From assembly GCA_019244185.1 (NCBI GenBank), contig JAFATB010000018.1, forward strand, positions 1 through 64,000: a DNA stretch of 64,000 nucleotides, given 5' to 3'. This stretch comes from Acidobacteriota bacterium (lineage in GTDB: Bacteria; Acidobacteriota; Thermoanaerobaculia; Gp7-AA8). Under the pieces are notes generated by a model that had not been told where the DNA came from, did no database searches, and saw only the letters and a list, made by a program, of their open reading frames with translations. Shown one piece after another: positions 47,805 through 62,237 of this stretch (position 1 is the stretch's first letter; the number at the start of each line of letters is the position of its first letter). Made by a program: the position numbers and the translations under genes.

Positions 47805-49349
47805 ATGCCGTCGAAACCGCTCGGAGATGTGGGCGCTGCATGGGAGACGGTTCGATCGCCGGCGTCGCGCGCCGCGGCGGTCTTCGTGCACGGCTGGGGT
47901 GGCGACTATCTCGAAACGTGGACGCGCAAGCCTCGTTTTCGCGCTCCGCTGAAGAGTCTCATCGACCATCTCGCCGAGGACGCGGCTCTTCCCTGGCTGT
48001 TCTATTCGGTGCGGCACACCGGTGCTGCCTTCGAGTCGACGACGATCGACCACATCGCCGGGATCGTGCAGACCGTCCTCGATACGTACGTTTACAAGGT
48101 GGCCGACGTCGTCGTGCTGGTCGCGCATAGCCTGGGCGGGCTCGCGTGTCGCCAGTTGATCCTCAACGAGATCGACCGGCTGCCGCGCGCCGAAATGAAG
48201 ATCGCCGGTCTGCTAATGTACGGGACGCCGAACGACGGCGCATCGATGGCAAAGCTCGCCGGCGGGCTGCTTGGCTCGGCATCCGGTGAGCAGATGCGCA
48301 CGTATAGCGACGAACTGCGCAGGCTCAACAGCGAGTGGCTGGAACGCGTTGCGAACGGCGGCAACCCCGCGCGCGGCTTCGACCAGCGTGCGCCGCTGCT
48401 CTGCTGGAATGTCGTCGGTACCTCCGATCGCGTCGTGACCCCCTCGTCCGCGGCCCACATGGCTCTCATGGGCGACGTGAAGATGGTCGCGAAGGGCCAC
48501 CTCGACATGGTTAAGCCGGCGTCGGTCGACGACGTCTCAGTCGGTATCGCCCGCGATTTCTTAGCCGAGGCGGAGAAGCGCGTCGCATCGCGGCCGCGCG
48601 ATTACGCGTGCGACAAGCTCGCCGCGCTGACCCGCGCTGCCGCCGCGCGTGAGCCGTGGGTGCTGACGGAAGAAGAGACGATCGAGCTCACGCAACTCGA
48701 CGGCGATCGGTCGCGATTCAGCGAGGCTGCCTCGCTGTTCCGATCGCACATCACCACCGTCCGCACCGGCGTCGCGTGCGGCGCGACGTTGCAAATCGGG
48801 GCGCGCCTCGACACCGCGAACTACGAGCCGGGAGTGACGGTGGCGTTCGACTGCGCGATCGGGGATGGCGTCGTGTCCAGCGCCGTCAGCGACGTGCTTC
48901 GCAGCGGCGACATCGACGAAGAGGAGTTGAAGGACCTCGTCCGCGTGGACCGGGTGGAGGCGACGAACGGCACGCGGTCGCTTCCGTTCGCCGCCGAGCC
49001 GATCACGAGGACGGACGGCTGTTACCTGCTGCCCTTCCGCTGTGAGAACTGGCCTGAGAGTCTGGAGCGAGTCGATCGTCTGGAAGTCGAGATCTCATCG
49101 GTCATCGATCTGGCCATGGGTTGGTACACGTTCTATGCGCCGAACACCGTTACCGATCGCCTGACCGTCACGTTCCGCTCGCCGTTCCGGATCGCATGTC
49201 TTCTGCACGAGCCGTTGCGGAGCCAGGCGCAGCCCAAGGAGAACGACTTCGTCAGCGGGTCTTATGTCACGAGGGTGCGCATCGACGGCCCGGTGGCCGC
49301 CGGCGCGCGGATCATGTTCATCTTCAGGAGGGACGATGGCGGCGAGTAA
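47805..49349 (+). CDS. Alpha/beta-hydrolase (PGAP1/DUF676-like lipase) fused to an unknown beta-rich C-terminal domain
   Basis: VFVHGWGG, AHSLGG nucleophile elbow, GTPNDG, SDRVV (Asp), KGHLDMVKP (His); SD GGAGG. Confidence 0.8.
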   Translation: MPSKPLGDVGAAWETVRSPASRAAAVFVHGWGGDYLETWTRKPRFRAPLKSLIDHLAEDAALPWLFYSVRHTGAAFESTTIDHIAGIVQTVLDTYVYKVADVVVLVAHSLGGLACRQLILNEIDRLPRAEMKIAGLLMYGTPNDGASMAKLAGGLLGSASGEQMRTYSDELRRLNSEWLERVANGGNPARGFDQRAPLLCWNVVGTSDRVVTPSSAAHMALMGDVKMVAKGHLDMVKPASVDDVSVGIARDFLAEAEKRVASRPRDYACDKLAALTRAAAAREPWVLTEEETIELTQLDGDRSRFSEAASLFRSHITTVRTGVACGATLQIGARLDTANYEPGVTVAFDCAIGDGVVSSAVSDVLRSGDIDEEELKDLVRVDRVEATNGTRSLPFAAEPITRTDGCYLLPFRCENWPESLERVDRLEVEISSVIDLAMGWYTFYAPNTVTDRLTVTFRSPFRIACLLHEPLRSQAQPKENDFVSGSYVTRVRIDGPVAAGARIMFIFRRDDGGE

Positions 49350-49425
49350 GAAGTCAGCGAAAGGTGGGTCTTCTAAAAAAAGCAGCAGCAAGAAGAATGG
49401 CGGCGGCGGCATTAGGAAAAAGTGA
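49336..49425 (+). CDS. 29-aa Lys/Ser/Gly-rich peptide MAASKKSAKGGSSKKSSSKKNGGGGIRKK
   Basis: AGGAGG 5 nt before the ATG; overlaps the hydrolase stop; below the ORF-track cutoff. Confidence 0.5.
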   Translation: MAASKKSAKGGSSKKSSSKKNGGGGIRKK

Positions 49426-49435
49426 GGAGACAGTC

Positions 49436-49582
49436 ATGGCGAACAAGAACAGCGGTTCGGGTTCATCTTCGGGAAGCGGCGGATCGAAAGGCGGCGGTGG
49501 CAAGAGCGTGACCACGACGACCCCGCAGCCGATTCCGCCTCGCGGTCCGAAACCGCGCAGCGGCGGCGGCGGAACCCGCTGA
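49436..49582 (+). CDS. 48-aa Gly/Ser/Pro-rich basic peptide MANKNSGSGSSSGSGGSKGGGGKSVTTTTPQPIPPRGPKPRSGGGGTR
   Basis: GAGGAG 6 nt before the ATG, immediately after the previous peptide's TGA. Confidence 0.55.
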   Translation: MANKNSGSGSSSGSGGSKGGGGKSVTTTTPQPIPPRGPKPRSGGGGTR

Positions 49583-49651
49583 CGCGTTGACTGCAGCGAA
49601 AACGCCGGCGCTCTTCACGAGCGGAGCTCGAGCGATACACTGACGCACCCG

Positions 49652-50824
49652 ATGTTCCGCTTCGACTTCACCACCGCCGGCGAATCTCACGGGCCGCAGC
49701 TGACGGTCCTCGTCACCGGACTGCCTGCCGGTTTGCGCGTCGACCGTGCTGCGATCGATCGGGATCTCGCGCGGCGGCAGCATGGGTATGGGCGCGGCGG
49801 GCGGATGAAGATCGAGAGCGATGCGGCGGAGGTCACCGCAGGCCTGCGCGGCGGCGAGACGCTCGGGTCGCCGATCGCGGTGCAGATCCGCAATCGCGAT
49901 TTCGAGAACTGGCAGCCGGCGATGGATCCGTGGACGCTCGACGACGCGGAGGCGCACAAGCGGCGCGTGCATGCGCCGCGACCGGGGCACGTCGATCTCG
50001 CGGGCGGGATGAAGTACGGCCGCACCGATCTGCGCGACGTCCTCGAGCGCGCGTCGGCGCGCGAGACCGCGGCGCGCGTCGCCGCCGGCGCGTTCGCGAA
50101 AGAACTGCTGCGCGCGTTCGGCATCGAGATCCGTTCCGGCGTCGTCTCCGTCGGACCCGCCGGCGATCCCGAATACGCGGCGACGTGGGGCGAGCTCGCG
50201 TCCGTTGACGACGACTCGCCCCTGCGCGCGATCAATCGCGAGCACGAGGCCGCGATGATCGCGGAAGTCGATCGCGCCCGCGAGCTCGGCGAGACCCTCG
50301 GCGGCACGATCGTCGTCGCCGCGCGCGGCGTCCCCGTCGGACTCGGCTCCTACGTCCAGTGGACGGAGAAGCTCGACGGCCGCATCGCGCAGGCGATCCT
50401 CTCGATCCATGCAGTCAAGGCGGTCGCGATCGGCGACGGCGTCGGCGCGGCGCGACGCGTCGGTTCCGAAGTGCATGATGCGATCTGGTTCGATGACGAG
50501 CGGCGCTATCACCGCACGACCAATCGCGCGGGTGGACTCGAAGGCGGCGTCACGAACGGAGAAGACGTCGTCGTGCGCGCGTTCATGAAGCCGATCTCGA
50601 CGCTGCGGCGTGGACTGCCGTCCGTCGACACCGAAACGCGCGAGGCGCATCGCTCGCAGTGGGAGCGCAGCGACGTCACCGCGGTGCCGGCGTGCGGCGT
50701 CGTCTGCGAGGCGATGCTCGCGATCGTGCTCGCGTCCGCGATGCGCGAAAAGTTCGGCGGCGATTCGCTCGCGGAGATGCGCCGGAATTACGATGCGTAT
50801 CTCGATGAGCTCCGCCTCTTTTAG
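49652..50824 (+). CDS. aroC: Chorismate synthase
   Basis: TAGESHG, RRQHGYGRGGRM, PRPGHVD, ERASARETA, NRAGGLEGG, ERSD. Confidence 0.97.
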   Translation: MFRFDFTTAGESHGPQLTVLVTGLPAGLRVDRAAIDRDLARRQHGYGRGGRMKIESDAAEVTAGLRGGETLGSPIAVQIRNRDFENWQPAMDPWTLDDAEAHKRRVHAPRPGHVDLAGGMKYGRTDLRDVLERASARETAARVAAGAFAKELLRAFGIEIRSGVVSVGPAGDPEYAATWGELASVDDDSPLRAINREHEAAMIAEVDRARELGETLGGTIVVAARGVPVGLGSYVQWTEKLDGRIAQAILSIHAVKAVAIGDGVGAARRVGSEVHDAIWFDDERRYHRTTNRAGGLEGGVTNGEDVVVRAFMKPISTLRRGLPSVDTETREAHRSQWERSDVTAVPACGVVCEAMLAIVLASAMREKFGGDSLAEMRRNYDAYLDELRLF

Positions 50825-51944
50825 AGACCTCTTTCCGGTCACGAAGAACCTCGTCTACTTCAATCACGCCGCGGTCGGCCCGCTCTCCGTGCGCGCGTAC
50901 GAGGCGATGGAGCGGCACGCGCGCGACCAGCGCGAGTTCGGCGCGCTGCACTGGCGCGACTGGTACGCGGAAGTCGACCGCCTCCGCGAGGCCGCGGCGC
51001 GGCTCATCGGTGCGAACGCGGACGAGATCGCGATCCTCAAGAACACGTCGGAAGGCCTGTCTTTCGTGGCCGAAGGCATCCGCTGGAACGCCGGCGACAA
51101 CGTCGTCACGACGGCGATGGAGTTCCCGTCGAACTGGACGCCGTGGCAGGCGCTCGCGCCGCGCGGCGTCGAAACGCGCGTCGCCGAAAACGCCACCGCC
51201 GCCGCGATCGCGCCGCTCCTCGACGACCGCACGCGCGTCGTCAGCGTCTCGTCCGTCGCGTTCCACAACGGCTTCGTCGCCGAGCTCGACGCGATCGGCG
51301 CACTCTGCGCGTCGCGCAATGTGCTCTTCGTCGTCGACGCGATTCAGAGCGTCGGCGTGCTGCCGATCGACGTGCGCCGCTCGGGCATTCACGTGCTCGC
51401 GGCGGATGGACACAAGTGGATGTGCGGTCCGGAGAGCTGCGCGCTCTTCTTCGTCGCCGCGGAACGTCGCGACGAACTGCAGGTGCTCGAGCACGGCTGG
51501 ACGAACATCGAGCGCGGCGGGAAGTTCATCGGCTGCGACGTCGCGCTCGTTCCCGACGCGCGCCGTTTCGAGGCGGGCTCGCTGAACACGAACGGCATCT
51601 ACGGTCTGCGCGCGGCGCTCGAACTGCTGCTGGAGATCGGCATCGAGACGGTGGCGTCGCATGCGATCGCCGTCGCCGCGGAGCTCGCGGACGGACTGGC
51701 CTCGATCGGCTGGAGCGTCGCGTCGCCGCGTCCGATCCGCTCCGGCATCGTCGGCGCGATTCCACCGGCCGTAGAAAACGACGCGTCGAAGTCGCTGTTG
51801 TGGTACCACCGGCGCCTCGAGGAAAACGGCGTCGTCTGCGCGCCGCGCGAAGGAATGCTGAGGTTTTCGCCGCATTTCTACAACGACCGCCTCGATGTCG
51901 CGCGCGTCGTGTCTGTGTTGCGGGGGTTATCATCATCGACATGA
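50805..51944 (+). CDS. Class V PLP-dependent aminotransferase
   Basis: YFNHAAVGP, NTSEG, EFPSN, VDAIQSVG, DGHKWMCGP, RFSPHFYN. Confidence 0.9.
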   Translation: MSSASFRDLFPVTKNLVYFNHAAVGPLSVRAYEAMERHARDQREFGALHWRDWYAEVDRLREAAARLIGANADEIAILKNTSEGLSFVAEGIRWNAGDNVVTTAMEFPSNWTPWQALAPRGVETRVAENATAAAIAPLLDDRTRVVSVSSVAFHNGFVAELDAIGALCASRNVLFVVDAIQSVGVLPIDVRRSGIHVLAADGHKWMCGPESCALFFVAAERRDELQVLEHGWTNIERGGKFIGCDVALVPDARRFEAGSLNTNGIYGLRAALELLLEIGIETVASHAIAVAAELADGLASIGWSVASPRPIRSGIVGAIPPAVENDASKSLLWYHRRLEENGVVCAPREGMLRFSPHFYNDRLDVARVVSVLRGLSSST

Positions 51945-53386
51945 CGATCATGGTGTTGTTTCTCTGCGTGATCGCGCTGCTGCTCGGTGCGATCGGAGGG
52001 TGGGTGGTTGGGAGCGCGAGGAAGAGCGCCGAGGCGCGGAAGGCGCTCGCGCAGCGCGACCAGGCGCTCGTGGAACGCGATCGCGCGGCCGCGGAGCGCG
52101 AGAAGGCGAAGATCGAGCGCGATCTCATGCGCGCGGAGCGCGAGCGCAGCGACGCCGAACGTCTGGCGATGCAGCAGCGCGTCGAGGATGCGCAGCAGGC
52201 GCGCGCCGCCGCCGACGCGCGCGTCGCGGAGGCGGAGAAGCTCCTCACCAATCACGAAGAAATGCGGCGCCAGCTCGAGGGCACGTTCGCGAGTCTCGCG
52301 CAGCGCGCGTTCCAGGCCGCGGGCGAGAACCTCGTGGCGATGAACAAGACCCAGATCGACGGCACGCTCGACACGAAGAAAGTCGAGATCGACGGCCTGC
52401 TCAAGCCGCTGCGCGACATGCTCGAGCAGTACCGCGGCGAAGTGCTCAAGAGCGAGCGCGTGCGCAACGAAAGCTACGGCGGACTGCAGGAGCAGATCCG
52501 CGCGCTGCTGGCCGCACAGGAATCGACGCAGCGCGAGGCGTCGCGTCTCGCGAACGTCCTGCAGTCGCCGACGGTCCGCGGCTCGTGGGGCGAGAACTCG
52601 CTGCGCCGCTGCATCGAGCTCGCCGGCATGAGCGAGTTCTGCGACTTCGACGTGCAGTTCACGGTCGTCTCCGACGATGGCCGCCGCCTGCGCCCCGATC
52701 TCATCGTCCGCCTGCCGAACAACCGCGCCATCGCCGTCGATGCGAAGGCGCCGCTGAACGAATACGCGAGCGCCGCCGACGAGACCGACGAGACGCGCAA
52801 GCGCGAGGCGCTCGCCGCGCACGCGAAGATGCTGCGGCGCCACATCGATGGCCTCAGCCGCCGCGACTATCAGGCCAGCATCGGCGACACGCTCGACTTC
52901 ACGGTGATGTATCTGCCGGGCGAGCACTTCCTCTCCGCCGCGCTCGTCACCGACCCGTCGCTCTTCGAATACGCGGTCGAACGCAAGATCTACCTCGCGT
53001 CGCCGACCGTGCTCCTGCCGCTGCTGCGCGCGGTGGCCGCGGGCTGGAAAGCGGAGCGCACGGAAGAGAACGCGAAGAAGCTGCACGACGCGGGCGTCGA
53101 GCTCTTCAATCGCTTCGTTAAGGTGATGGAGCACGTCGCCGACGTCGGCACCGCGCTGCGGCGCACGGTCGAGAAGTACAACGGCGCGATCGGCTCGATC
53201 GACCGCATGCTCTGGCCGAAGGGCGAAGAGCTGCAGCGCCTCGCCGGCAGCGGCAAAGAGCTCGGTGCGCTCAACCAGATCGAAGCGGTGCCGCTCGAGT
53301 CGTCGAAGCTGCGGCTCACGATGCAGAACGAAGAGCCGGGGCTGCTTTTCGCGATCGACGGCCGGCCGCTCGAGGGAACTTCGTAG
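51941..53386 (+). CDS. rmuC: DNA recombination protein RmuC
   Basis: N-terminal TM and coiled coil; RGSWGE..L, RPDLIVRLP, VDAKAP, DFTVMYLPGE, SPT. Confidence 0.92.
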   Translation: MTIMVLFLCVIALLLGAIGGWVVGSARKSAEARKALAQRDQALVERDRAAAEREKAKIERDLMRAERERSDAERLAMQQRVEDAQQARAAADARVAEAEKLLTNHEEMRRQLEGTFASLAQRAFQAAGENLVAMNKTQIDGTLDTKKVEIDGLLKPLRDMLEQYRGEVLKSERVRNESYGGLQEQIRALLAAQESTQREASRLANVLQSPTVRGSWGENSLRRCIELAGMSEFCDFDVQFTVVSDDGRRLRPDLIVRLPNNRAIAVDAKAPLNEYASAADETDETRKREALAAHAKMLRRHIDGLSRRDYQASIGDTLDFTVMYLPGEHFLSAALVTDPSLFEYAVERKIYLASPTVLLPLLRAVAAGWKAERTEENAKKLHDAGVELFNRFVKVMEHVADVGTALRRTVEKYNGAIGSIDRMLWPKGEELQRLAGSGKELGALNQIEAVPLESSKLRLTMQNEEPGLLFAIDGRPLEGTS

Positions 53387-53414
53387 CCGCGAGCTGTGTT
53401 ACGATCGGCGTCTC

Positions 53415-53486
53415 ATGACCCGCCACCTTCAGGAGCACGAGCCGCTGCAGAGTCTCAACGCCGGCTCGTTGCTTTGGCCGGCGTAA
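53415..53486 (+). CDS. Putative trp leader peptide MTRHLQEHEPLQSLNAGSLLWPA
   Basis: Short ORF upstream of trpG, 9 nt after an extended -10 (TGtTACGAT), with one Trp codon near its end. Confidence 0.5.
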   Translation: MTRHLQEHEPLQSLNAGSLLWPA

Positions 53487-53572
53487 CCGCCGCGTTCCCC
53501 CATTTCCTCTGACGTTGATTCGATGGCGATGGTGATCGCCCGCGTCCGCCTTTCCATTCGCCGGAGGAACGC

Positions 53573-54142
53573 ATGATCACCGTCATCGACAACTACGATT
53601 CATTCACCTACAACCTCGTGCAGCAGCTCGAGCGCCTCGCGGGCGAGCGGCTGCGCATCATCCGCAACGACGCGTTCGAGCCCGCGGAACTGCTGCACGA
53701 GCGGCCGCGCGCGCTCGTGATCTCGCCCGGCCCCGGCACGCCCGCGCGCGCCGGCCGCTGCATCGATCTCATTCGCGCGAACACTTCGATCCCGCTCCTC
53801 GGCGTCTGCCTCGGACATCAGGCGATCGCCGAGGCGTTCGGCGCGAGCGTCGTGCGCGGGAGTTTGCCCGTGCACGGGAAAGTGAGCGAGGTGCGCCACG
53901 GCGGCGAGCGGCTGTTCAAGGACTGCCCGACGCCGATGCACACCGCGCGCTATCACTCGCTCGTCGTCGCGCGCGAAACGCTGCCGGACGTTTTCACGGT
54001 CGACGCGGAGACCGACGATGGCGCGGTCATGGCGGTGTCGCATCGCATGCGCCCGATCTTCGGCATCCAGTTCCATCCCGAGTCGTACGGAACCGCGGGC
54101 GGCGATCAGCTGATCCGCAACTTTCTCGGAGGTCTCGCATGA
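53573..54142 (+). CDS. trpG: Anthranilate synthase component II
   Basis: IDNYDSFTYNL, ISPGPG, GVCLGHQ, RYHSL, QFHPES. Confidence 0.93.
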   Translation: MITVIDNYDSFTYNLVQQLERLAGERLRIIRNDAFEPAELLHERPRALVISPGPGTPARAGRCIDLIRANTSIPLLGVCLGHQAIAEAFGASVVRGSLPVHGKVSEVRHGGERLFKDCPTPMHTARYHSLVVARETLPDVFTVDAETDDGAVMAVSHRMRPIFGIQFHPESYGTAGGDQLIRNFLGGLA

Positions 54143-55164
54143 TCGCCGACGCCATCAAACGCGTGGTCGACGGCCGGCACCTCGGCCGCGACGAAATGCG
54201 GGAGGTCTTCGGCGCCGTCATGGACGGCCGCACGACAGACGTGCAGAAGTCGGCGCTCCTGGTCGCGCTGCGGATGAAAGGCGAGACGCCGGACGAGATC
54301 GCCGGCGCCGCGCTGGCCATGCGCGAGCGCGTGACGCCGCTCGACGTTGACGGTGTCAACCTGGTGGACACCTGCGGGACCGGCGGCGACGGCCGCGGCA
54401 CGTTCAACGTGTCCACCATCGCCGCGATCGTCGCCGCGGGCGCAGGCGCGAAGGTCGCGAAACACGGCAACCGCGCGGTGTCGTCGTCGTGCGGCAGCGC
54501 CGATCTCCTCGCCGCGCTCGGCGTCAACATCGATCTCGACGCCGCGCGCATGTCGGCGGTGCTGCGCCGCACCGGCATCGCGTTTCTCTTCGCGCCAAAG
54601 CTGCATCCCGCGATGAGCGCCGTGGCCGGCGTGCGGCGCGAGCTCGGCGTGCGCACGATCTTCAACGTCCTCGGCCCGCTCACGAACCCCGCGTTCGCGC
54701 GGCGGCAGGTGCTCGGCGTGTACGCGGAGCGGCTCGTCGATGTGGTCGCGCGCGTCCTCGCCGCGCTCGGCGTCGAGCACGCGCTCGTCGTGCACAGCCG
54801 CGACGGTCTCGACGAGATCTCCGTCTCCGCGCCGACGGTTGTCTGCGAGGTGCGCGACGGCGAGGTGCGCTCGTACGAGCTCACGCCGGACGATCTCGGT
54901 CTCGCCACGCACACACTCGACGATCTCCTCGGCGGCGACGCCCGCATGAACGCGACGATCGCGCGCGCAATCCTCGAAGGTGCCGGCGACGCGCGCCACG
55001 ACATCGTCGTCGCGAACGCCGGCGCCGCGTTGTACGTGGCCGGACTCGCGCCGACGATCCGCGACGGTGTCGCGCTCGCGCGCGAGTCGCTCGCGAGCGC
55101 GCGGGCGTTAGGAAAATTGGAAGAGTTGATCGCGGCAAGCCGCGAGCTCGGAGGCGCCGCATGA
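54139..55164 (+). CDS. trpD: Anthranilate phosphoribosyltransferase
   Basis: DTCGTGGDG, KHGNRAVSS, RTIFNVLGPLTNP, GLDE. Confidence 0.96.
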   Translation: MIADAIKRVVDGRHLGRDEMREVFGAVMDGRTTDVQKSALLVALRMKGETPDEIAGAALAMRERVTPLDVDGVNLVDTCGTGGDGRGTFNVSTIAAIVAAGAGAKVAKHGNRAVSSSCGSADLLAALGVNIDLDAARMSAVLRRTGIAFLFAPKLHPAMSAVAGVRRELGVRTIFNVLGPLTNPAFARRQVLGVYAERLVDVVARVLAALGVEHALVVHSRDGLDEISVSAPTVVCEVRDGEVRSYELTPDDLGLATHTLDDLLGGDARMNATIARAILEGAGDARHDIVVANAGAALYVAGLAPTIRDGVALARESLASARALGKLEELIAASRELGGAA

Positions 55165-55931
55165 CCGTCCTCGACCAGATCGTCGAACGTACGCGCGAGC
55201 GCCTCCGCACCGAAAGCAAGCCCGATCGCCGCGCGGCGGAAGACGTCGCGGCCTCGCGCGCGCCGTTCGCGTTTCGCGAGGCGCTCGCACGCGACGGCGT
55301 GAACGTCATCGCCGAGATCAAGTCCGCGTCGCCGTCGGCGGGATCCATCATCGACAACCCCGACGTCGAAGCGATCGCGCGCGAGTACGCGCGGGGCGGA
55401 GCCGCGGCACTCTCGGTCGTCACCGAGCCGGAGTTCTTCCGCGGCTCGCGCGAATGGCTTGCGCGCGCGAGCGGTGCGGCGGCGTTGCCGGTGGTGATGA
55501 AAGACTTCGTCGTCGAGCCGTCGCAAATCGTGCGCGGGATCGCGGCGGGCGCCAACGCGATCCTGCTGCTCGCGTCGCTGCTCGACACCGCGCGCATCCG
55601 CGACTTCGTGGCGCTTCTCGAAGCCTACGGCTGCGACGCGCTCGTCGAAGTGCACGACGAGGAAGAGCTCGAGCGCGCGGTCGCGGGCAGCGCGCGCATC
55701 ATCGGCGTCAACAATCGAGATCTGCGCGATTTCCGCGTCGATCTCGCCACCTCCGAACGGCTCGGCGCGCGCATGCCGGCCGATGCGATCCGCGTCGCGG
55801 AAAGCGGCATCCGCACGCACGCGGACGTCGCGCGGCTGCGCAACGTTGGCTTTCACGCGTTTCTCGTCGGCGAATCGCTCCTTCGACAACACGACCGCGC
55901 CGCCGCCGTGCGCGCGTTGATCGAGCCATGA
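55161..55931 (+). CDS. trpC: Indole-3-glycerol phosphate synthase
   Basis: [34 protein letters not shown]. Confidence 0.95.
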
Positions 55932-56533
55932 CCAAGCTCAAGATCTGCGGCATCACGCGACTCGAAGACGCGCAACTCTGCGCCGACAACGAAGTCGATT
56001 TTCTCGGCTTCATCTTCGTCCCCGAGTCGCCGCGCTACATCGAGCCGGAACGCGCGGCGGAGATCGCGTCGCGCGTGCGCGGTCCGCGCTTCGTGGGCGT
56101 GTTCCGCGACGCCGCGCCGGAGCTCGTGCGCGAGACGGCGCGCATCGCGAACGTCGACTTCGTGCAACTGCACGGCGCCGAATCCGAAGACGACATCCGC
56201 GAGATCGGATTGCCGTCGATCAAAGCGCTGCGCGTCGGCGACACGCTGCCCGACACCACGGCCACGCCGAGCGCGCAGTGGCTGCTCTTCGACACCTACG
56301 ACGAACGCCGCGGCGGCGGCACCGGCCGTCGCTTCGACTGGTCGCTGCTCGCGCTGTACGCGCGCACGCAACCGTTCTTTCTCTCCGGCGGCCTCGGCCC
56401 CGACAACGTCGCCGCCGCGATCAGCCTCGTGCGCCCCGACGCGATCGACGTCTCCAGCGGCGTCGAAGCGTCGCCCGGCGTGAAAGACCACGACAAACTC
56501 CGCAACCTCTTCGAGAGGATCCGACGCTCATGA
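55928..56533 (+). CDS. trpF: Phosphoribosylanthranilate isomerase
   Basis: KICGIT, SPR, QLHG, GGTG..FDW, DVSSGVE. Confidence 0.95.
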
Positions 56534-57714
56534 CGGCAGTGCTTCCCGACAAACACGGTTTCTTCGGCACGTTCGGCGGACAGTTCGTCCCCGAAACGTT
56601 GATGGCCGCGCTCGACGAATTTGAGCGCGCGTACAAGCAGCTCAAACGCGACCGCGCGTTTCGCGACGAGCTGCACGACATCCTCGGCGAGTTCGTGGGG
56701 CGTCCGACGCCGCTCACCGAGGCGCGAAGGTTCGCGTCGCTGGCAAACGGCGCGTTTCGCTTGTTTCTAAAACGCGAAGACCTCAACCACACCGGCGCGC
56801 ACAAGATCAACAACGCCATCGGCCAGGCGCTCATCGCGAAACGCATGGGCAAGCAGCGCGTGATCGCGGAGACCGGCGCGGGACAGCACGGCGTCGCCAC
56901 CGCCACCGCGTGCGCGCTCCTCGGCTTGCAATGCGTCGTCTACATGGGCGAAGTCGACATGGCGCGGCAGGAGCTCAACGTCTTCCGCATGCGCCTCCTC
57001 GGCGCGGAAGTCGTCCCCGTGACGAGCGGCAGCCGGACGCTGAAAGACGCGATCAACGAGGCCATCCGCGACTGGGTCACGAACGTCCGCACCACGCACT
57101 ACATCATCGGCTCGGTGCTCGGGCCGCATCCGTATCCGATGATCGTGCGCGACTTCCAGTCCGTCATCGGACGCGAGGCGCTCGCGCAGCTGAAGAAGAA
57201 AACCGGCGCGCTGCCGGACGTCGCGATCGCGTGCGTCGGCGGCGGCTCGAACGCGATCGGCCTCTTCTACGAGATGCTCCCGCACCCGTCGATCCGGATG
57301 ATCGGCGTCGAAGCGGGCGGGCGCGGCGCGCAGCTCGGCGAACATGCCGCGCGTTTCTCCGGCGGCGCGCTGGGCGTGCTGCACGGCACGCGCTCGATGG
57401 TGCTGCAGGACGAGTTCGGACAGATCGCGGAGACGCATTCGATCTCCGCGGGACTCGACTACCCATCGATTGGTCCCGAGCACGCGTACCTGCAGGAAAT
57501 CGGACGCGTCGAATACCACGACTGCAGCGACGACCTCGCGCTCGAGGCGTTCCACAAGCTCAGCGAGTCGGAAGGCATCATCCCGGCGCTCGAGTCGTCG
57601 CACGCCCTCGGGTGGCTGCTGCGCAACGGGCAGACGATCGCGCGCGACGCGGTCGTGGTCGTGAATCTCTCCGGACGCGGCGACAAGGACGTGCCGCAGG
57701 TGGCCGCCCTATGA
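56530..57714 (+). CDS. trpB: Tryptophan synthase beta chain
   Basis: [42 protein letters not shown]. Confidence 0.97.
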
Positions 57715-58526
57715 AACGCGTCGAGACGTTGTTCCGCCGTCTGAAACGCGAGCGCCGCTGCGGCCTCATCGCGTACGTCACGTGCGGCGACGGCGACACG
57801 GGGCGTATCGTCGACGCGCTCGCGCGCGCCGGCGCCGACGCGATCGAGCTCGGGATTCCGTTCTCCGATCCGATCGCCGACGGCCCGGTGATCCAGGCGG
57901 CGTCGCAGCGCGCATTGCAGCACGGGACGACGACGCACGACGTCTTCGCCATCGCGCGCGCGATCCGCGCGCTGCACGCCGACCTGCCGCTGATCGCGTT
58001 CTCGTATCTCAATCCGATTCTCCGCTACGGTGCGCGGCGCTTCGCGCACGACGCGTGCGAGGCCGGCATCGACGCCGTTTTGCTGACGGACCTGCCGCCC
58101 GAGGCAGCGGCGGAGTTGCGGAAAGAGCTCCGGGAGGAAGGATTGGGAGCCGTTTTTCTGCTTGCCCCGACTTCCACCGATGCGCGCATCCGCGCCATCG
58201 ACCGCGCGTCGGACGGCTTCGTCTACTACGTCTCGACGACGGGCGTGACCGGCGCGCGTCGCGAGCTCGATCCCTCGCTCCTCGGCCGTCTCGACGAAGT
58301 ACGCGCGAAGCTCAGACATCCGATCGCCGTCGGCTTCGGCATCTCGCGGCATGAACACTACGAACTGCTGCGCGAGCACTGCGACGCGATCGTCGTCGGC
58401 AGCGCGATCGTGCGTGCCATCGGCGAAGGCGATGCGGACGGCGCGGCCGAACGCGCGGCGAACGTCGTGCGCGGCATTCTCGACACCGCCATTCTTGACA
58501 CCGCGAGCATCGCGCCCGTACCCTGA
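57711..58526 (+). CDS. trpA: Tryptophan synthase alpha chain
   Basis: [34 protein letters not shown]. Confidence 0.96.
58495..58524 (+). promoter_or_regulatory. Putative sigma-70 promoter inside the trpA 3' end driving the Tyr leader
   Basis: TTGACA (58495-58500), 18 nt, TACCCT (58519-58524), then 9 nt to the leader ATG. Confidence 0.55.
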
Positions 58527-58533
58527 CGCGCAC

Positions 58534-58584
58534 ATGAATCACAGCGCCCTTCGCTACGCGTATTACTACGGCTACTACAGCTAG
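58534..58584 (+). CDS. Tyr-rich leader peptide MNHSALRYAYYYGYYS
   Basis: 6 Tyr codons in the last 9 sense codons, directly upstream of the attenuator hairpins and chorismate mutase. Confidence 0.85.
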   Translation: MNHSALRYAYYYGYYS

Positions 58585-58645
58585 CGTGGGGCAACGACCG
58601 CCCCGACGCGAGAAGGGGCGCTCGAACGGCAACGGATCATCGACG

Positions 58646-58679
58646 ACCTCTTCTCCGGCGGGAGAAGAGGTTTTCGTTT
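58646..58679 (+). terminator. Attenuator terminator hairpin, also occluding the chorismate mutase SD
   Basis: ACCTCTTCTCC-GGCG-GGAGAAGAGGT followed by TTTCGTTT, then ATG 58680. Confidence 0.8.
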
Positions 58680-58970
58680 ATGAATCGAACCGATGCCGAA
58701 GCCGAGCTGACGCGCCTCCGTGAAGCGATCGACCGCGTCGACGACGTGCTGGTCAAGCTCCTCAACCAGCGCGCGAAATACGCCGTCGAAATCGGCGAGA
58801 TCAAAGGCCTGCTCGCGCTGCCGATCTACGCGCCCGAGCGCGAGAAGCAGGTCCTCCAGCACGTCGAGGATGCGTCGCAGGGGCCGCTGCACGGCACCGC
58901 GATCCGCCGCCTCTTCGAACGCATCATCGACGAGTCGCGCCGCGTGGAACGAGAGTCCGCGAACGCATAG
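58680..58970 (+). CDS. Chorismate mutase (AroQ type II)
   Basis: LREAIDRVD..LLNQRA..IGEIK..PERE..IIDESRRVE. Confidence 0.92.
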   Translation: MNRTDAEAELTRLREAIDRVDDVLVKLLNQRAKYAVEIGEIKGLLALPIYAPEREKQVLQHVEDASQGPLHGTAIRRLFERIIDESRRVERESANA

Positions 58971-59005
58971 ATACGCGAGTCCGCACAAGCGTAAAAGGAG
59001 AAGTC

Positions 59006-60019
59006 ATGGTCATCGTCATGCAGAAGCACGCGCCCGACGCGAGCATCGAACACGTGGTCGCGGAGCTGATCTCGCGCGGCTTCGACGTGCATCGTTCCAC
59101 CGGCTCGGACCAAACGGTCCTCGGCGTCGTCGGCCACGTCGACACGATCGATCCGCGCGAGTTCGAGCTCTTCGACGGCGTGCAGGAAGTCGTGCGCGTC
59201 AGCGAGCCGTACAAGCTCTCGAGCCGCACGTTCAAGCGCGAGAAGACCGTCGTCAACGCGCGCGGTGTCGAGATCGGCGGCGACAAGGTCGTGGTCATGG
59301 CCGGGCCGTGCACGATCGAAAGCGAGACGCAGCTCTTCGAGACCGCGCGCCGCGTCGCGCGTGCCGGCGCGCGCGTCCTGCGCGGCGGCGCGTACAAGCC
59401 GCGCACGTCGCCGTACGCGTTTCAGGGCATGGGCGTCGAAGGCCTCAAGCTGCTGCGCGCGGCGGGCGACGAGACGAACATGGCCACGGTCTCCGAGGTG
59501 ATGGAGATCTCGCAGATCGAAACGATGCTCGAGTACGTGGACATCCTGCAGGTCGGCGCGCGCAACATGCAGAACTACAACCTGCTGTCGGCGCTTGGGC
59601 AGATCCGCAAGCCGGTGCTGCTCAAGCGCGGCATGTCCGCCACGATTCAGGAATGGCTGCTCGCCGCCGAGTACATCATGGCCGGCGGCAACTACGACAT
59701 CATCCTCTGCGAGCGCGGCATCCGCACGTTCGAGACGTACACGCGCAACACGTTCGACATCTCGGCGATCCCGGTGATCGGGAAGCTCTCGCATCTGCCG
59801 ATCGTCGGCGATCCGTCGCACGCGGTGGGACGGCGCGACAAGGTGATGCCGGTTGCGCGCGCGGTCGTGGCCGCGGGCGGCGACGGGCTGCTCATCGAGG
59901 TGCATCACGATCCGGACAAGGCGGTGTGCGACGGACCGCAGTCGCTGTATCCCGATCAGTTCGCGCGTCTCATGGACGAACTGCGTATCATCGTGCCGGC
60001 GGTGGGACGAAGCGTGTGA
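59006..60019 (+). CDS. aroF: DAHP synthase (type I-beta with N-terminal ferredoxin-like/ACT regulatory domain)
   Basis: AGPCTIE, GGAYKPRTSPY, GARNMQN, LKRG, CERGIRTFE, DPSH. Confidence 0.95.
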   Translation: MVIVMQKHAPDASIEHVVAELISRGFDVHRSTGSDQTVLGVVGHVDTIDPREFELFDGVQEVVRVSEPYKLSSRTFKREKTVVNARGVEIGGDKVVVMAGPCTIESETQLFETARRVARAGARVLRGGAYKPRTSPYAFQGMGVEGLKLLRAAGDETNMATVSEVMEISQIETMLEYVDILQVGARNMQNYNLLSALGQIRKPVLLKRGMSATIQEWLLAAEYIMAGGNYDIILCERGIRTFETYTRNTFDISAIPVIGKLSHLPIVGDPSHAVGRRDKVMPVARAVVAAGGDGLLIEVHHDPDKAVCDGPQSLYPDQFARLMDELRIIVPAVGRSV

Positions 60020-61074
60020 TGGTCGTTGGGGTCCGGACGAAGACCGCGCTCACGATTGCCGCGGCGGCGGTGCTCGTCCGCGCGCTCGTGCTCGTCGCGT
60101 CGATGTACGCCGGCCATCTCTCGATCGCGCAACTCGCCGACGCGCGCGATGGCCGGTCGTACCTGCACTACGCCGCGGCAGCGCGTGCGCCGAACGGGTT
60201 CGCGTCGTTGCCGGAGTACGACCGGCGCGTGTTTCCCGGCTATCCGGCGCTGCTGGCCGTGCTGCGCCTCGATGCGATGCCGCTGCTCGCGATGATCGTG
60301 AACTGGCTCGCCGCCGGCGCGGTGGCGGCGCTCTGCTTCGTGCTGTTCGATGACGCACGCATCGGCTGGGCAATGGCGGTGCTCACGCCGAGCTACGTCA
60401 TGTACTCGACCGTGCTGATGACGGAGCCGCTCGTGCTGCTCCTCGGCGTTGGCGCGTTGTACTTCGGCCGTCGCGAGCGTCCGGCGTTCGCGGGCGCGGC
60501 ACTCGGACTCGACGCGCTCGTGCGTCCGCTTGCGCTGCCGCTCGGACTCGCGTTTCTCGCCGAACGGCGCAAGTCGCCGCGCGCGATCGTCGTCGCGGTC
60601 ATCGCCGCCGTGGTCGCGATCGCGATCGGCGCGGCGTGCTTCGTCTGGTGGTCGGGCTCGTTGTCGTCGGGCGTGCGCGTCTACGCGAGCGATCCGCGCG
60701 CGTACGGCGGCTCGAGCATGTTCACGTGGCCGTTCGCGTCGCTCGTGCGGACGTCGCTCGCGCCCGGCATCGCGAAGTGGAAGATCGCGTACATCTGGCT
60801 GCACGTCATCGCCGCCCTCGGCGCGCTCGTGCCGCTCGCACGCAACGCGCGGCGCGAGTTCCCTCCGTTCGTCTGGCACGCGTCGAACATGCTGCTCGTG
60901 CTCTGCGTCGGCGGCGTCTGGGGCTTCCACGAGTTCCATCGTCTGATCGTGCCGTCGCTGCCGCCGCTGTTCTGGGCGTATCGGCGCCTGCTGCCGTCGC
61001 GCACGCTCGCGTGGATCGCGATCGCACTGCTGTCCGCCGCCGTCGCGGCGAAGGGACTCAGTCACGGCTGGTAA
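60019..61074 (+). CDS. Polytopic membrane protein, GT-C/PMT-like glycosyltransferase
   Basis: About 10 hydrophobic segments; D-G-x-S-Y loop, FPGYPALL, LMTEPL, LVRP. Confidence 0.6.
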   Translation: MVVGVRTKTALTIAAAAVLVRALVLVASMYAGHLSIAQLADARDGRSYLHYAAAARAPNGFASLPEYDRRVFPGYPALLAVLRLDAMPLLAMIVNWLAAGAVAALCFVLFDDARIGWAMAVLTPSYVMYSTVLMTEPLVLLLGVGALYFGRRERPAFAGAALGLDALVRPLALPLGLAFLAERRKSPRAIVVAVIAAVVAIAIGAACFVWWSGSLSSGVRVYASDPRAYGGSSMFTWPFASLVRTSLAPGIAKWKIAYIWLHVIAALGALVPLARNARREFPPFVWHASNMLLVLCVGGVWGFHEFHRLIVPSLPPLFWAYRRLLPSRTLAWIAIALLSAAVAAKGLSHGW

Positions 61075-62237
61075 ATGACGTTGCCGCCGCGCAGCGTGTA
61101 GCGGACGTCGGTCAGCGCGCGCAGGTCCGTCGATGGGTCGCCGCGTAAGACGACGAGATCCGCATCGAAGCCCGCCGCGACGCGGCCTTTCGCTTGCGCG
61201 CTGCCGAATTGTTCCGCGGGCGCCGTCGTGAGCGACGCGAGGATCTGCGCGAACGTCATGCCCGCACTCTGCATCAGCCGATATTCGTCGGATGGGTCGG
61301 GATCGACCGCGCCGAGGTCGGTGCCGAAGAGGACGCGGCCACCGGAGCCGAGCCAGGCGCGCAACTCGCCGATGGCCGCGTCGACGAACTGTTCCTGCGC
61401 GGACGCGCGATCGTGACGCATCGTCTGCTGCCACAACGTCAGCGTCGGCGTCAGCGCGGGATGCTGTTCGCGCACGAGCGCGAGGATCGCGTCGTCCCAC
61501 GTCTTCGATGCGGGCGTCGTGTGCGCGATCACGTCGACGCCGGCGCGCAATGCGGTGAGGACGTCGGCGCTGCTGTTCGGATGCACGAACACGGGCTTAC
61601 CCGCGTCGTGCGCTTCGTCGACCGCGGCGCGAATCGTCTCCTCGGAGAGCGCGGCTCCGCGTTGGGAGGATGCGAAGAGCTTGATGCCGTCGACGCCTGC
61701 GTCGAGAAGTTTCTTCGCGGCGGCGCGCGCCTGCGCAGGGTCGTCGATCTCCGGCAGCGGCGTCTTCATGAGACCCATCATCGCGAGCACGAGATCAGGC
61801 GGAAGACCGCCGGTCGGAATCAGTCCTTCGCCCGTCGAACGAATCGCGGGACCGGCCACTTCGCCCGACTCGATGCGCGCACGCAACGCCCGCGTGTTCT
61901 CCCAAAGCGAACTGAGATCGAAGACGGTCGTGAAGCCGTAGCGCGTGTGCGACTGTTCGAGTTGACGCGCGAGCTCCGGCGCCGGAATCGACGCGGCGTC
62001 CGCCCACTTGCGCTCGAAGAAATGCACGTGGCTGTTCCAGAAGCCTGCGGTGATGGTCATGCCGGAAGCGTCGATGCGCCGTGCGTTCGCGGGAATCGCG
62101 ACATGCGCTCTGTCGCCGACGGCCGCGATCGTGGCGCCGTCGATGACGACGACGCCGTCGCGGATTGGCGAGTCGTCGGGGCTGACGTAGATCGTCGCAC
62201 CGGCGAATGCGATTGCAACGTGAGGCGCGCTTTCCAC
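61062..62237 (-). CDS. Amidohydrolase family protein
   Basis: GFWNSHVH, GFTTVFD, IAH, FGTDLG, GFDADLVVL. Confidence 0.9.
   Translation of the reverse strand: MESAPHVAIAFAGATIYVSPDDSPIRDGVVVIDGATIAAVGDRAHVAIPANARRIDASGMTITAGFWNSHVHFFERKWADAASIPAPELARQLEQSHTRYGFTTVFDLSSLWENTRALRARIESGEVAGPAIRSTGEGLIPTGGLPPDLVLAMMGLMKTPLPEIDDPAQARAAAKKLLDAGVDGIKLFASSQRGAALSEETIRAAVDEAHDAGKPVFVHPNSSADVLTALRAGVDVIAHTTPASKTWDDAILALVREQHPALTPTLTLWQQTMRHDRASAQEQFVDAAIGELRAWLGSGGRVLFGTDLGAVDPDPSDEYRLMQSAGMTFAQILASLTTAPAEQFGSAQAKGRVAAGFDADLVVLRGDPSTDLRALTDVRYTLRGGNVIYQP

Follow-up and report, generated by a model that had tools for sequence, protein, structure and literature searches.

The enterobacterial trpL, pheL-pheA, hisL and thrL leaders share a short upstream open reading frame (uORF) rich in codons for the cognate amino acid, on which the position of the ribosome selects between a terminator and an antiterminator (PMC1183508 and PMC11802643, in their accessible parts). 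The element reported here is predicted to work likewise, and it differs from those leaders in its Tyr codons, in a uORF devoid of a Shine-Dalgarno (SD) sequence, as predicted, and in the existence of three specificities on one recognisable sequence. As regards the regulated pathway, a related case is the aroR-aroF attenuator of C. glutamicum, also a leader-peptide attenuator with aromatic codons preceding a DAHP synthase gene, whose Phe-Tyr-Phe leader is described as responsive to Phe and not to Tyr in the available text of PMC11802643 and PMC4046766. Likened by description, the leaders studied here carry instead 2-6 Tyr codons, have a chorismate mutase (CM) gene as the first gene and belong to another phylum. 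The C. glutamicum attenuator was reportedly tested experimentally by Neshat in 2014, and our literature search retrieved no other aromatic leader with experimental support ahead of a DAHP synthase gene. Sensors lacking an SD have precedents in the C. glutamicum ilvBNC leader, a sensor of amino acids other than Tyr with three alternative hairpins (PMC11857589, accessible portion), and in the mycobacterial polycysteine uORFs, which respond to Cys and act on the ribosome binding site (10.1101/834739, accessible portion). Unlike the leaderless mycobacterial uORFs, the Tyr leader has a predicted 5' UTR of 2-4 nt rather than none. Morbach (2000) is said, going by the title of that work, to have dealt with the leader of C. 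glutamicum ilvBNC as one lacking a ribosome binding site.

Attenuation before DAHP synthase genes has also been listed computationally, Shewanella aroF appearing as 'Attenuator sensing tyr-tRNA' (PMC2659441 Table 3) and the Vibrio and Thermus aroA-tyrA genes with predicted Tyr-linked attenuators (PMC1173090 Table 7), with no leader peptide shown in the accessible parts of these sources. Almost none of the predicted Acidobacteria attenuators has an assigned function in the available text of PMC2965389, whose supplements and those of PMC4833913 list leader genes or attenuators genome-wide and, going by the available text, could include Acidobacteria. It is likely that Tyr leaders have been predicted elsewhere before. 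Comparative studies by Vitreschak (2004) and Lopatovskaya (2010) reportedly cover aromatic attenuators. A search of literature outside subscription journals and supplements retrieved no paper on the Tyr cassette, no experimental demonstration of a pure tyrosyl-tRNA leader-peptide sensor and no description of a leader peptide changing specificity by codon swap.

Here we analyse a leader in an Acidobacteriota bacterium; the window is the whole 64,000-nucleotide stretch of contig JAFATB010000018.1 that was studied. We conclude, with a probability of roughly 0.85, that it is an attenuator of transcription that depends on the ribosome, has its own promoter and controls CM and DAHP synthase through charged tRNA-Tyr (Tyr and some Phe in most relatives).

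Results

A Tyr-rich uORF precedes the chorismate mutase and DAHP synthase genes

The genes of the locus are the following.

57711..58526, + strand: trpA, the upstream neighbour hosting the predicted promoter (its adjacency to the leader is not conserved)
58534..58584, + strand: leader uORF, MNHSALRYAYYYGYYS plus TAG (basis: sequence, genome ORF count and conservation)
58680..58970, + strand: AroQ-type CM, 96 aa, predicted first regulated gene (TIGR01807 above cut-off)
59006..60019, + strand: DAHP synthase, 337 aa, predicted second regulated gene (PRK08673, TIGR01361; PDB)

The uORF runs for 16 codons from the ATG at 58534 to the TAG at 58582-84 and contains no Phe or Trp codon and six Tyr codons, namely codons 8, 10-12 and 14-15 (58555-57, 58561-69 and 58573-78). 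These six Tyr codons, which had drawn the attention of the initial annotation, set it apart in the genome: among the 31,401 ATG-initiated ORFs of 8-35 aa in the 5.3 Mb scanned, it is the sole one with six, and a single other has five. The five-Tyr ORF, on contig C2, was rejected as a leader, since it is apparently the terminal, in-frame part of a longer gene. The 157-nt leader region folds with a z-score of -4.85, none of 200 shuffled sequences being equally stable. The identities first proposed for the two downstream genes stand on the profile matches given above, to which DAHP synthase adds full-length PDB matches (4grs, 1rzm).

Gene order in the window is trpG-D-C-F-B-A, Tyr leader, CM, DAHP synthase; trpE is missing from this trp cluster and is located on a different contig, following an aroD-aroE fusion. 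A second DAHP synthase paralogue (G000:C2:38146-39156, 49% identical) is present in the genome, with no cassette match there. Metatranscriptomic data (5% of words; 80% likeness) yielded mixed-organism contigs with zero depth over 58510-90, uninformative either way.

The leader is conserved and dominated by Tyr codons

Close relatives are mostly labelled Thermoanaerobaculia or Acidobacteriota. The initial annotation had made its reading depend on Tyr-rich uORFs existing in relatives, and the leader was found 5' of CM at 64 of 67 loci with at least 60% identity (21 from one search, 46 from another), corresponding to 51 distinct leaders, 11 duplicates and two dropped by the start filter. Two of the other three loci are cut by contig ends and the third, from another family, has trpA joined directly to CM. 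No leader was found at six distant CM loci (34-41% identity), and the best 30 DAHP synthase loci of a class-wide sample gave 23 with the leader, five without it and two cut. The Tyr copy is thus confined to part of one family in the samples examined. Genomes G002, G030 and G229 enter the tallies as single rows, G002 being also one row of alignment A1, and no conclusion depends on any of them by itself.

Tyr accounts for 208 of the 752 codons in the 51 leaders (28%, against 2.5% genome-wide; TAT 59, TAC 149) and Phe for 73 (9.7%, against 3.8%), while Trp occurs in seven leaders, once in each (1.3% genome-wide). Most of the Phe codons (44 of 73) are TTT (8% genome-wide), one change away from TAT. 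From these tallies the leader family is Tyr-dominant with a Phe component, and the window lies at its pure-Tyr end. The Tyr specificity initially claimed therefore applies to the window and four other Phe-free leaders among the 51, and does not extend to a family with 73 Phe codons.

It could be argued that Phe, alone or on a par with Tyr, is what the family senses, with Tyr codons mattering little in vivo. Phe does take the place of Tyr at codons -9, -7 and -2 from the stop, at least one Phe is found in 46 of the 51 leaders, and C. glutamicum aroR is a Phe-only precedent (accessible part of PMC11802643). Against this, codon -5 is TAC in 47 leaders and codon -3 is Tyr in 46, Tyr outnumbers Phe in 47 and ties with it in four, Phe never being higher, and five of the nine pheA loci inspected in relatives show, as judged by eye, a separate Phe-containing SD-less uORF with a different terminator. 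This alternative, inapplicable to the Phe-free leader of the window and overlapping the best explanation in the case of the relatives, is in our opinion very improbable.

A putative promoter places CM and DAHP synthase in their own transcription unit

Two candidate promoter elements lie upstream of the uORF.

58495..58500, + strand: -35 hexamer TTGACA, within the 3' end of trpA (predicted)
58519..58524, + strand: -10 hexamer TACCCT, 9 nt 5' of the ATG of the uORF (putative start site downstream)

The pattern TTGACA-18-TACCCT is sigma70-like; a consensus promoter scan did not list the -35 TTGACA of the window. A TTG-led hexamer lies 17-18 nt 5' of the -10 in 47 of the 51 leaders, compared with 37 of the 1,067 ATGs in the genome that follow a similar -10 (3.5%), the -35 having played no part in the choice of leader start codons. 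The distance from the -10 to the uORF ATG is 7-13 nt in all 51, a regularity to be read with the fact that the -10 had guided that choice. Given this short spacing, the predicted 5' UTR of the uORF would be about 2-4 nt, in which an SD cannot fit. The 3' end of the 16S rRNA could not be located in the genome assembly. Genome-wide, TA[CT]nnT boxes are in excess 6-12 nt before the ATGs of long ORFs, with peaks at 6 and 9 nt, so that mRNAs with a very short leader, or with none, may be frequent in this lineage.

Only 10 of the 51 leaders have trpA within 900 nt upstream, 38 do not, and in three the flank is too short. CM and DAHP synthase thus appear to form a separate transcription unit with a promoter of their own, predicted from sequence, with read-through from trpA being possible in the window. 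This weakens the initial view of two amino-acid sensors in one aromatic supra-operon, which does not hold as a conserved state.

Six RNA segments are predicted to form alternative hairpins

The switch is built from the following segments.

58546..58562, + strand: segment 1, within the uORF coding region (from the MFE fold)
58584..58592, + strand: segment A, core GGGGC at 58588-92, 3 nt after the stop; would be covered by a ribosome at the stop
58599..58609, + strand: segment B, core CGCCCC at 58599-604; partner of A (ON) or C (OFF)
58610..58620, + strand: segment C; partner of B (OFF) or of D (antiterminator, ON)
58645..58656, + strand: segment D, terminator 5' arm, with CCTCTTCTC at 58647-55
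58661..58679, + strand: segment E, terminator 3' arm and U-tract, with GAGAAGAGG at 58662-70

Segments A to E and the U-tract are all present where the initial annotation had placed them, and to these we add segment 1, which pairs with the stop region and segment A in the untranslated RNA (-20.9 kcal/mol) and so brings the switch to six segments. This six-segment, three-hairpin layout resembles that of hisL. Helix energies in the window are -16.5 kcal/mol for A:B, -22.1 for C:D with its extension and -24.9 for D:E. The first GGG lies 3-4 nt past the stop in 46 of the 51 leaders. A 12-bp hairpin at 58645-72 ranks first in the terminator scan, whose total of eight sites does not differ significantly from the shuffled mean of 5.0. 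The leader thereby combines a uORF of cognate codons, a terminator, a mutually exclusive antiterminator, a suitable geometry and a promoter, all of them predicted from sequence and modelling.

An SD-like GAGG (58667-70) lies inside segment E, and the U-tract TTTTCGTTT (58671-79), which is interrupted, runs up to the CM ATG at 58680. The proposal that the terminator hides the SD of CM finds support across the family, as 46 of the 51 leaders have CM starting no more than 5 nt from where the modelled terminator ends, which puts the SD in segment E. The same arrangement, the interrupted U-tract of the window and the precedent of the mycobacterial leaderless polycysteine uORFs, which work through SD sequestration (bioRxiv 10.1101/834739, accessible part), would fit a variant of this device whose main output is translational, with D:E hiding the SD and termination being minor. 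Three U positions are, however, invariant over the 51 leaders and two more are at least 90% conserved, and the five leaders in which CM starts 13-142 nt downstream retain both hairpin and U-tract, which makes a mainly translational output improbable and transcription attenuation the reading that we follow. In L031 and L071, where 134-142 nt separate the terminator from CM, insertions with inverted-repeat character lie in this interval.

The alternative pairings put forward initially, A:B with C:D for ON and B:C with D:E for OFF, were examined by covariation. RNAalifold recovers B:C and D:E on an unfitted alignment; these two helices are paired in 98.9% of the cells, with both-side changes at five pairs, and none of 500 shuffles scores as high. 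For C:D 96.7% of the cells are paired and no both-side change occurs in alignment A1. In the 82 of 88 elements (all three types described below) whose segments could be cut out, C:D has an energy of -13.6 with its own partner and -12.7 with shuffled partners (0/2000), the partner-specific signal being weak for B:C (136/2000) and nil for A:B (916/2000); as the leaders share kinship, these shuffle counts are not probabilities.

Staged folding, with D made and E not yet, ribosome footprints of +12 and +15 and C:D counted at P > 0.5, gave the opposite folds anticipated for the two ribosome positions in most leaders: with the A site anywhere from codon -7 to codon -3, C:D forms in 44-46 of the 51 leaders, as against 7-9 when the ribosome is at the stop and seven without ribosome. 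The window itself behaves less clearly: when its truncated RNA is folded with a ribosome placed on the stop, its own C:D still reaches 0.78-0.93. In its full-length RNA at equilibrium, D:E has P = 1.0 at every ribosome position. Therefore, the switch must depend on folding order; the logic proposed initially is supported by covariation and staged folds and is at odds with the equilibrium fold. Furthermore, as soon as C is available B:C prevails over A:B in 36-40 of the 51 leaders, even with the ribosome stalled on codons -7 to -5, and the ON state consequently needs kinetic priority of A:B. According to these models, A:B would have to form before C appears, and B:C before D appears.

The sequence of events that we propose is as follows. 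Transcription would start 2-4 nt 5' of the ATG of the uORF, and ribosome loading would need no SD. With ample Tyr, the modelled ribosome reaches the stop and covers A, B:C would form before D is made, then D:E, and transcription would end near 58675 with the SD of CM hidden in E. With scarce Tyr the ribosome would stall on the Tyr cluster, covering segment 1 and leaving A free, so that A:B would form first, C would capture D, and polymerase would read through with the SD accessible. In the absence of translation, segment 1 would take A, leading to termination.

Paralogous copies carry His or Trp codons

A covariance model built from the Tyr leaders matches in 69 of the 80 genomes of the family, frequently at two or three places in a genome, and in seven of a 141-genome phylum sample, these being the window's own, four of the same family, one of the same order (Trp type) and one weak match without a leader. 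We inspected 48 paralogue loci, made up of 40 weaker places among the 126 family matches and eight from the phylum sample: 46 are of His or Trp type, one is of Tyr type and one has no leader. When the 88 distinct elements are typed by their peptide alone, the leader codons fit the downstream gene in every case (42 Tyr before CM, 28 His before hisZ-like genes, 18 Trp before aroD-aroE), 'hisZ' being the name that we give to a tRNA-synt_His match some 260-320 aa long, and the downstream genes of 12 elements having been checked by Pfam. Most Tyr rows were found via CM or DAHP synthase, and it is therefore the 46 His and Trp rows that carry this test. Several genomes, e.g. G142, G113 and G097, hold all three copies; that of the window has the Tyr copy only and an aroDE without leader. 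Identity downstream of the stop is 0.62-0.64 between types and 0.64-0.69 within them. In staged folding the His copies switch, with C:D in 26 of 28 when stalled against seven of 28 at the stop, and the Trp copies do so poorly (17 of 18 against 11 of 18).

These copies also bear on the nature of the short ORF. Tyr-rich modified-peptide precursors offer a conceivable role for it, the product being then a functional peptide and the hairpin merely a terminator, and a Y-Y-G-Y-like core does recur in many leaders. The N-terminal half of the leader varies freely, though, the neighbours are trpA, CM and DAHP synthase, and ahead of his or aro-trp genes the same RNA has His or Trp codons instead, in 46 of 46 cases, leaving a functional peptide barely credible beside a codon-reading attenuator.

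Rfam gave no match at the window element, including the T-box, and no leader family up to E 5 in 49000-62000; on paralogous loci Thr_leader scored 28.3 bits (a His paralogue) and 27.4 bits, below the gathering threshold of 55. A few leaders are mixed, L215 (G196) being His-rich with WW before aroDE, and L235 (G164) and L237 (G121) His-rich with one Trp before hisZ, which possibly indicates cross-pathway sensing or traces of shared ancestry. The Trp copies L229, L231, L244 and L214 look decayed, with the terminator or U-tract weakened, and L214 lacks segments A and B. The pheA leaders (L087, L088, L090, L091 and L092), which the covariance model of the Tyr leaders does not match, constitute a third type of leader within this family.

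Possible origin of the Tyr copy and lack of a pheA match

Deep members without the Tyr leader have aroDE-trpE-G-D-C-F-B-A-(CM)-DAHPS in one run. This run is headed by a G-W-W copy in G093, where the codons are mixed (MNAGSATSYFSFGWWYLHS), and in G149; in G089 the run is present and no copy was found at its head. In some of these leaders of ancestral type, Tyr, Phe and Trp already occur together. On a 64-row tree of CM and DAHP synthase, leader presence requires one change (SH-aLRT 91, by a quick method and with long outgroup branches). The G-W-W and G-Y-Y motifs lie in similar register and the seven Tyr leaders mentioned above keep a Trp, which speaks for the Trp copy as the donor. When 87 sequences downstream of the stop were placed on a tree (98 columns, without L214), the donor of the Tyr copy was not resolved, and the tree shows 12 changes of type, compatible with one origin per type.

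In the genome of the window, 98.9% complete, pheA (PF00800) was not found, tblastn with the proteins of nine relatives giving a best E of 0.07, nor were phenylalanine hydroxylase and hisZ; a TyrA-like gene is present (45 bits). The lack of pheA and hisZ matches in this genome (G000) raises the possibility of Phe and His auxotrophy. Across 53 genomes pheA was found in 33 and PDH in 50, calls to be read in the light of many incomplete assemblies. The mean number of leader Phe codons is 1.00 in 18 genomes without a pheA match versus 1.67 in the 33 with one (Mann-Whitney p 0.004), and nine independent pairs show the same trend without reaching significance (median p 0.25-0.5), so that we treat a link between pheA loss and Phe codons as a lead.

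A second, unrelated uORF precedes trpG

Another SD-less uORF, MTRHLQEHEPLQSLNAGSLLWPA, with one Trp, lies before trpG in the window (53415-53486, + strand; -10 TACGAT at 53400-05). A script detected a related uORF (ENE...S-x-L-W-L) at 22 of the 30 trpG loci, and two more were recognised by eye. The trpG uORF is unrelated to the Tyr cassette, and no U-tract terminator was seen. Possible roles for it are those of an arrest peptide or of an attenuator with one Trp that works on translation or through Rho. A tentative LIRWRW leader at 53515-35 was dropped in favour of this conserved uORF.

Discussion

By sequence, the switch before CM is homologous to those of the Trp copy before aroD-aroE and the His copy before hisZ. 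We infer that the Tyr copy arose once, whereby CM and DAHP synthase would have gained control independent of an ancestral aro-trp supra-operon. It is tempting to speculate further that one cassette, comprising promoter, SD-less uORF and six-segment switch, was duplicated in this lineage of Acidobacteriota and that codon swaps alone turned it to His, Trp or Tyr, the Tyr version deriving from the G-W-W leader of an ancestral aroDE-trp-CM-DAHPS supra-operon and becoming a pure tyrosyl-tRNA sensor where pheA was lost, as in the genome of the window; for this scenario as a whole we consider the odds to be even. T-box riboswitches offer a parallel, with specificity switching by codon change after duplication and one RNA chassis being retuned. 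The codon retuning is alike in both; T-boxes bind tRNA directly, unlike the uORF-based Tyr leader.

The mechanism class is old, and the interest of this family lies in its codon-reprogrammed paralogues and its Phe-free leader. Such a cassette could be put to use as an amino-acid biosensor programmed through its codons. The leader with six Tyr and zero Phe, in a genome where pheA was not detected, would provide a clean test of whether Tyr alone can be sensed by leader-peptide attenuation, and the three paralogous cassettes would represent a natural experiment on how attenuators change their specificity.
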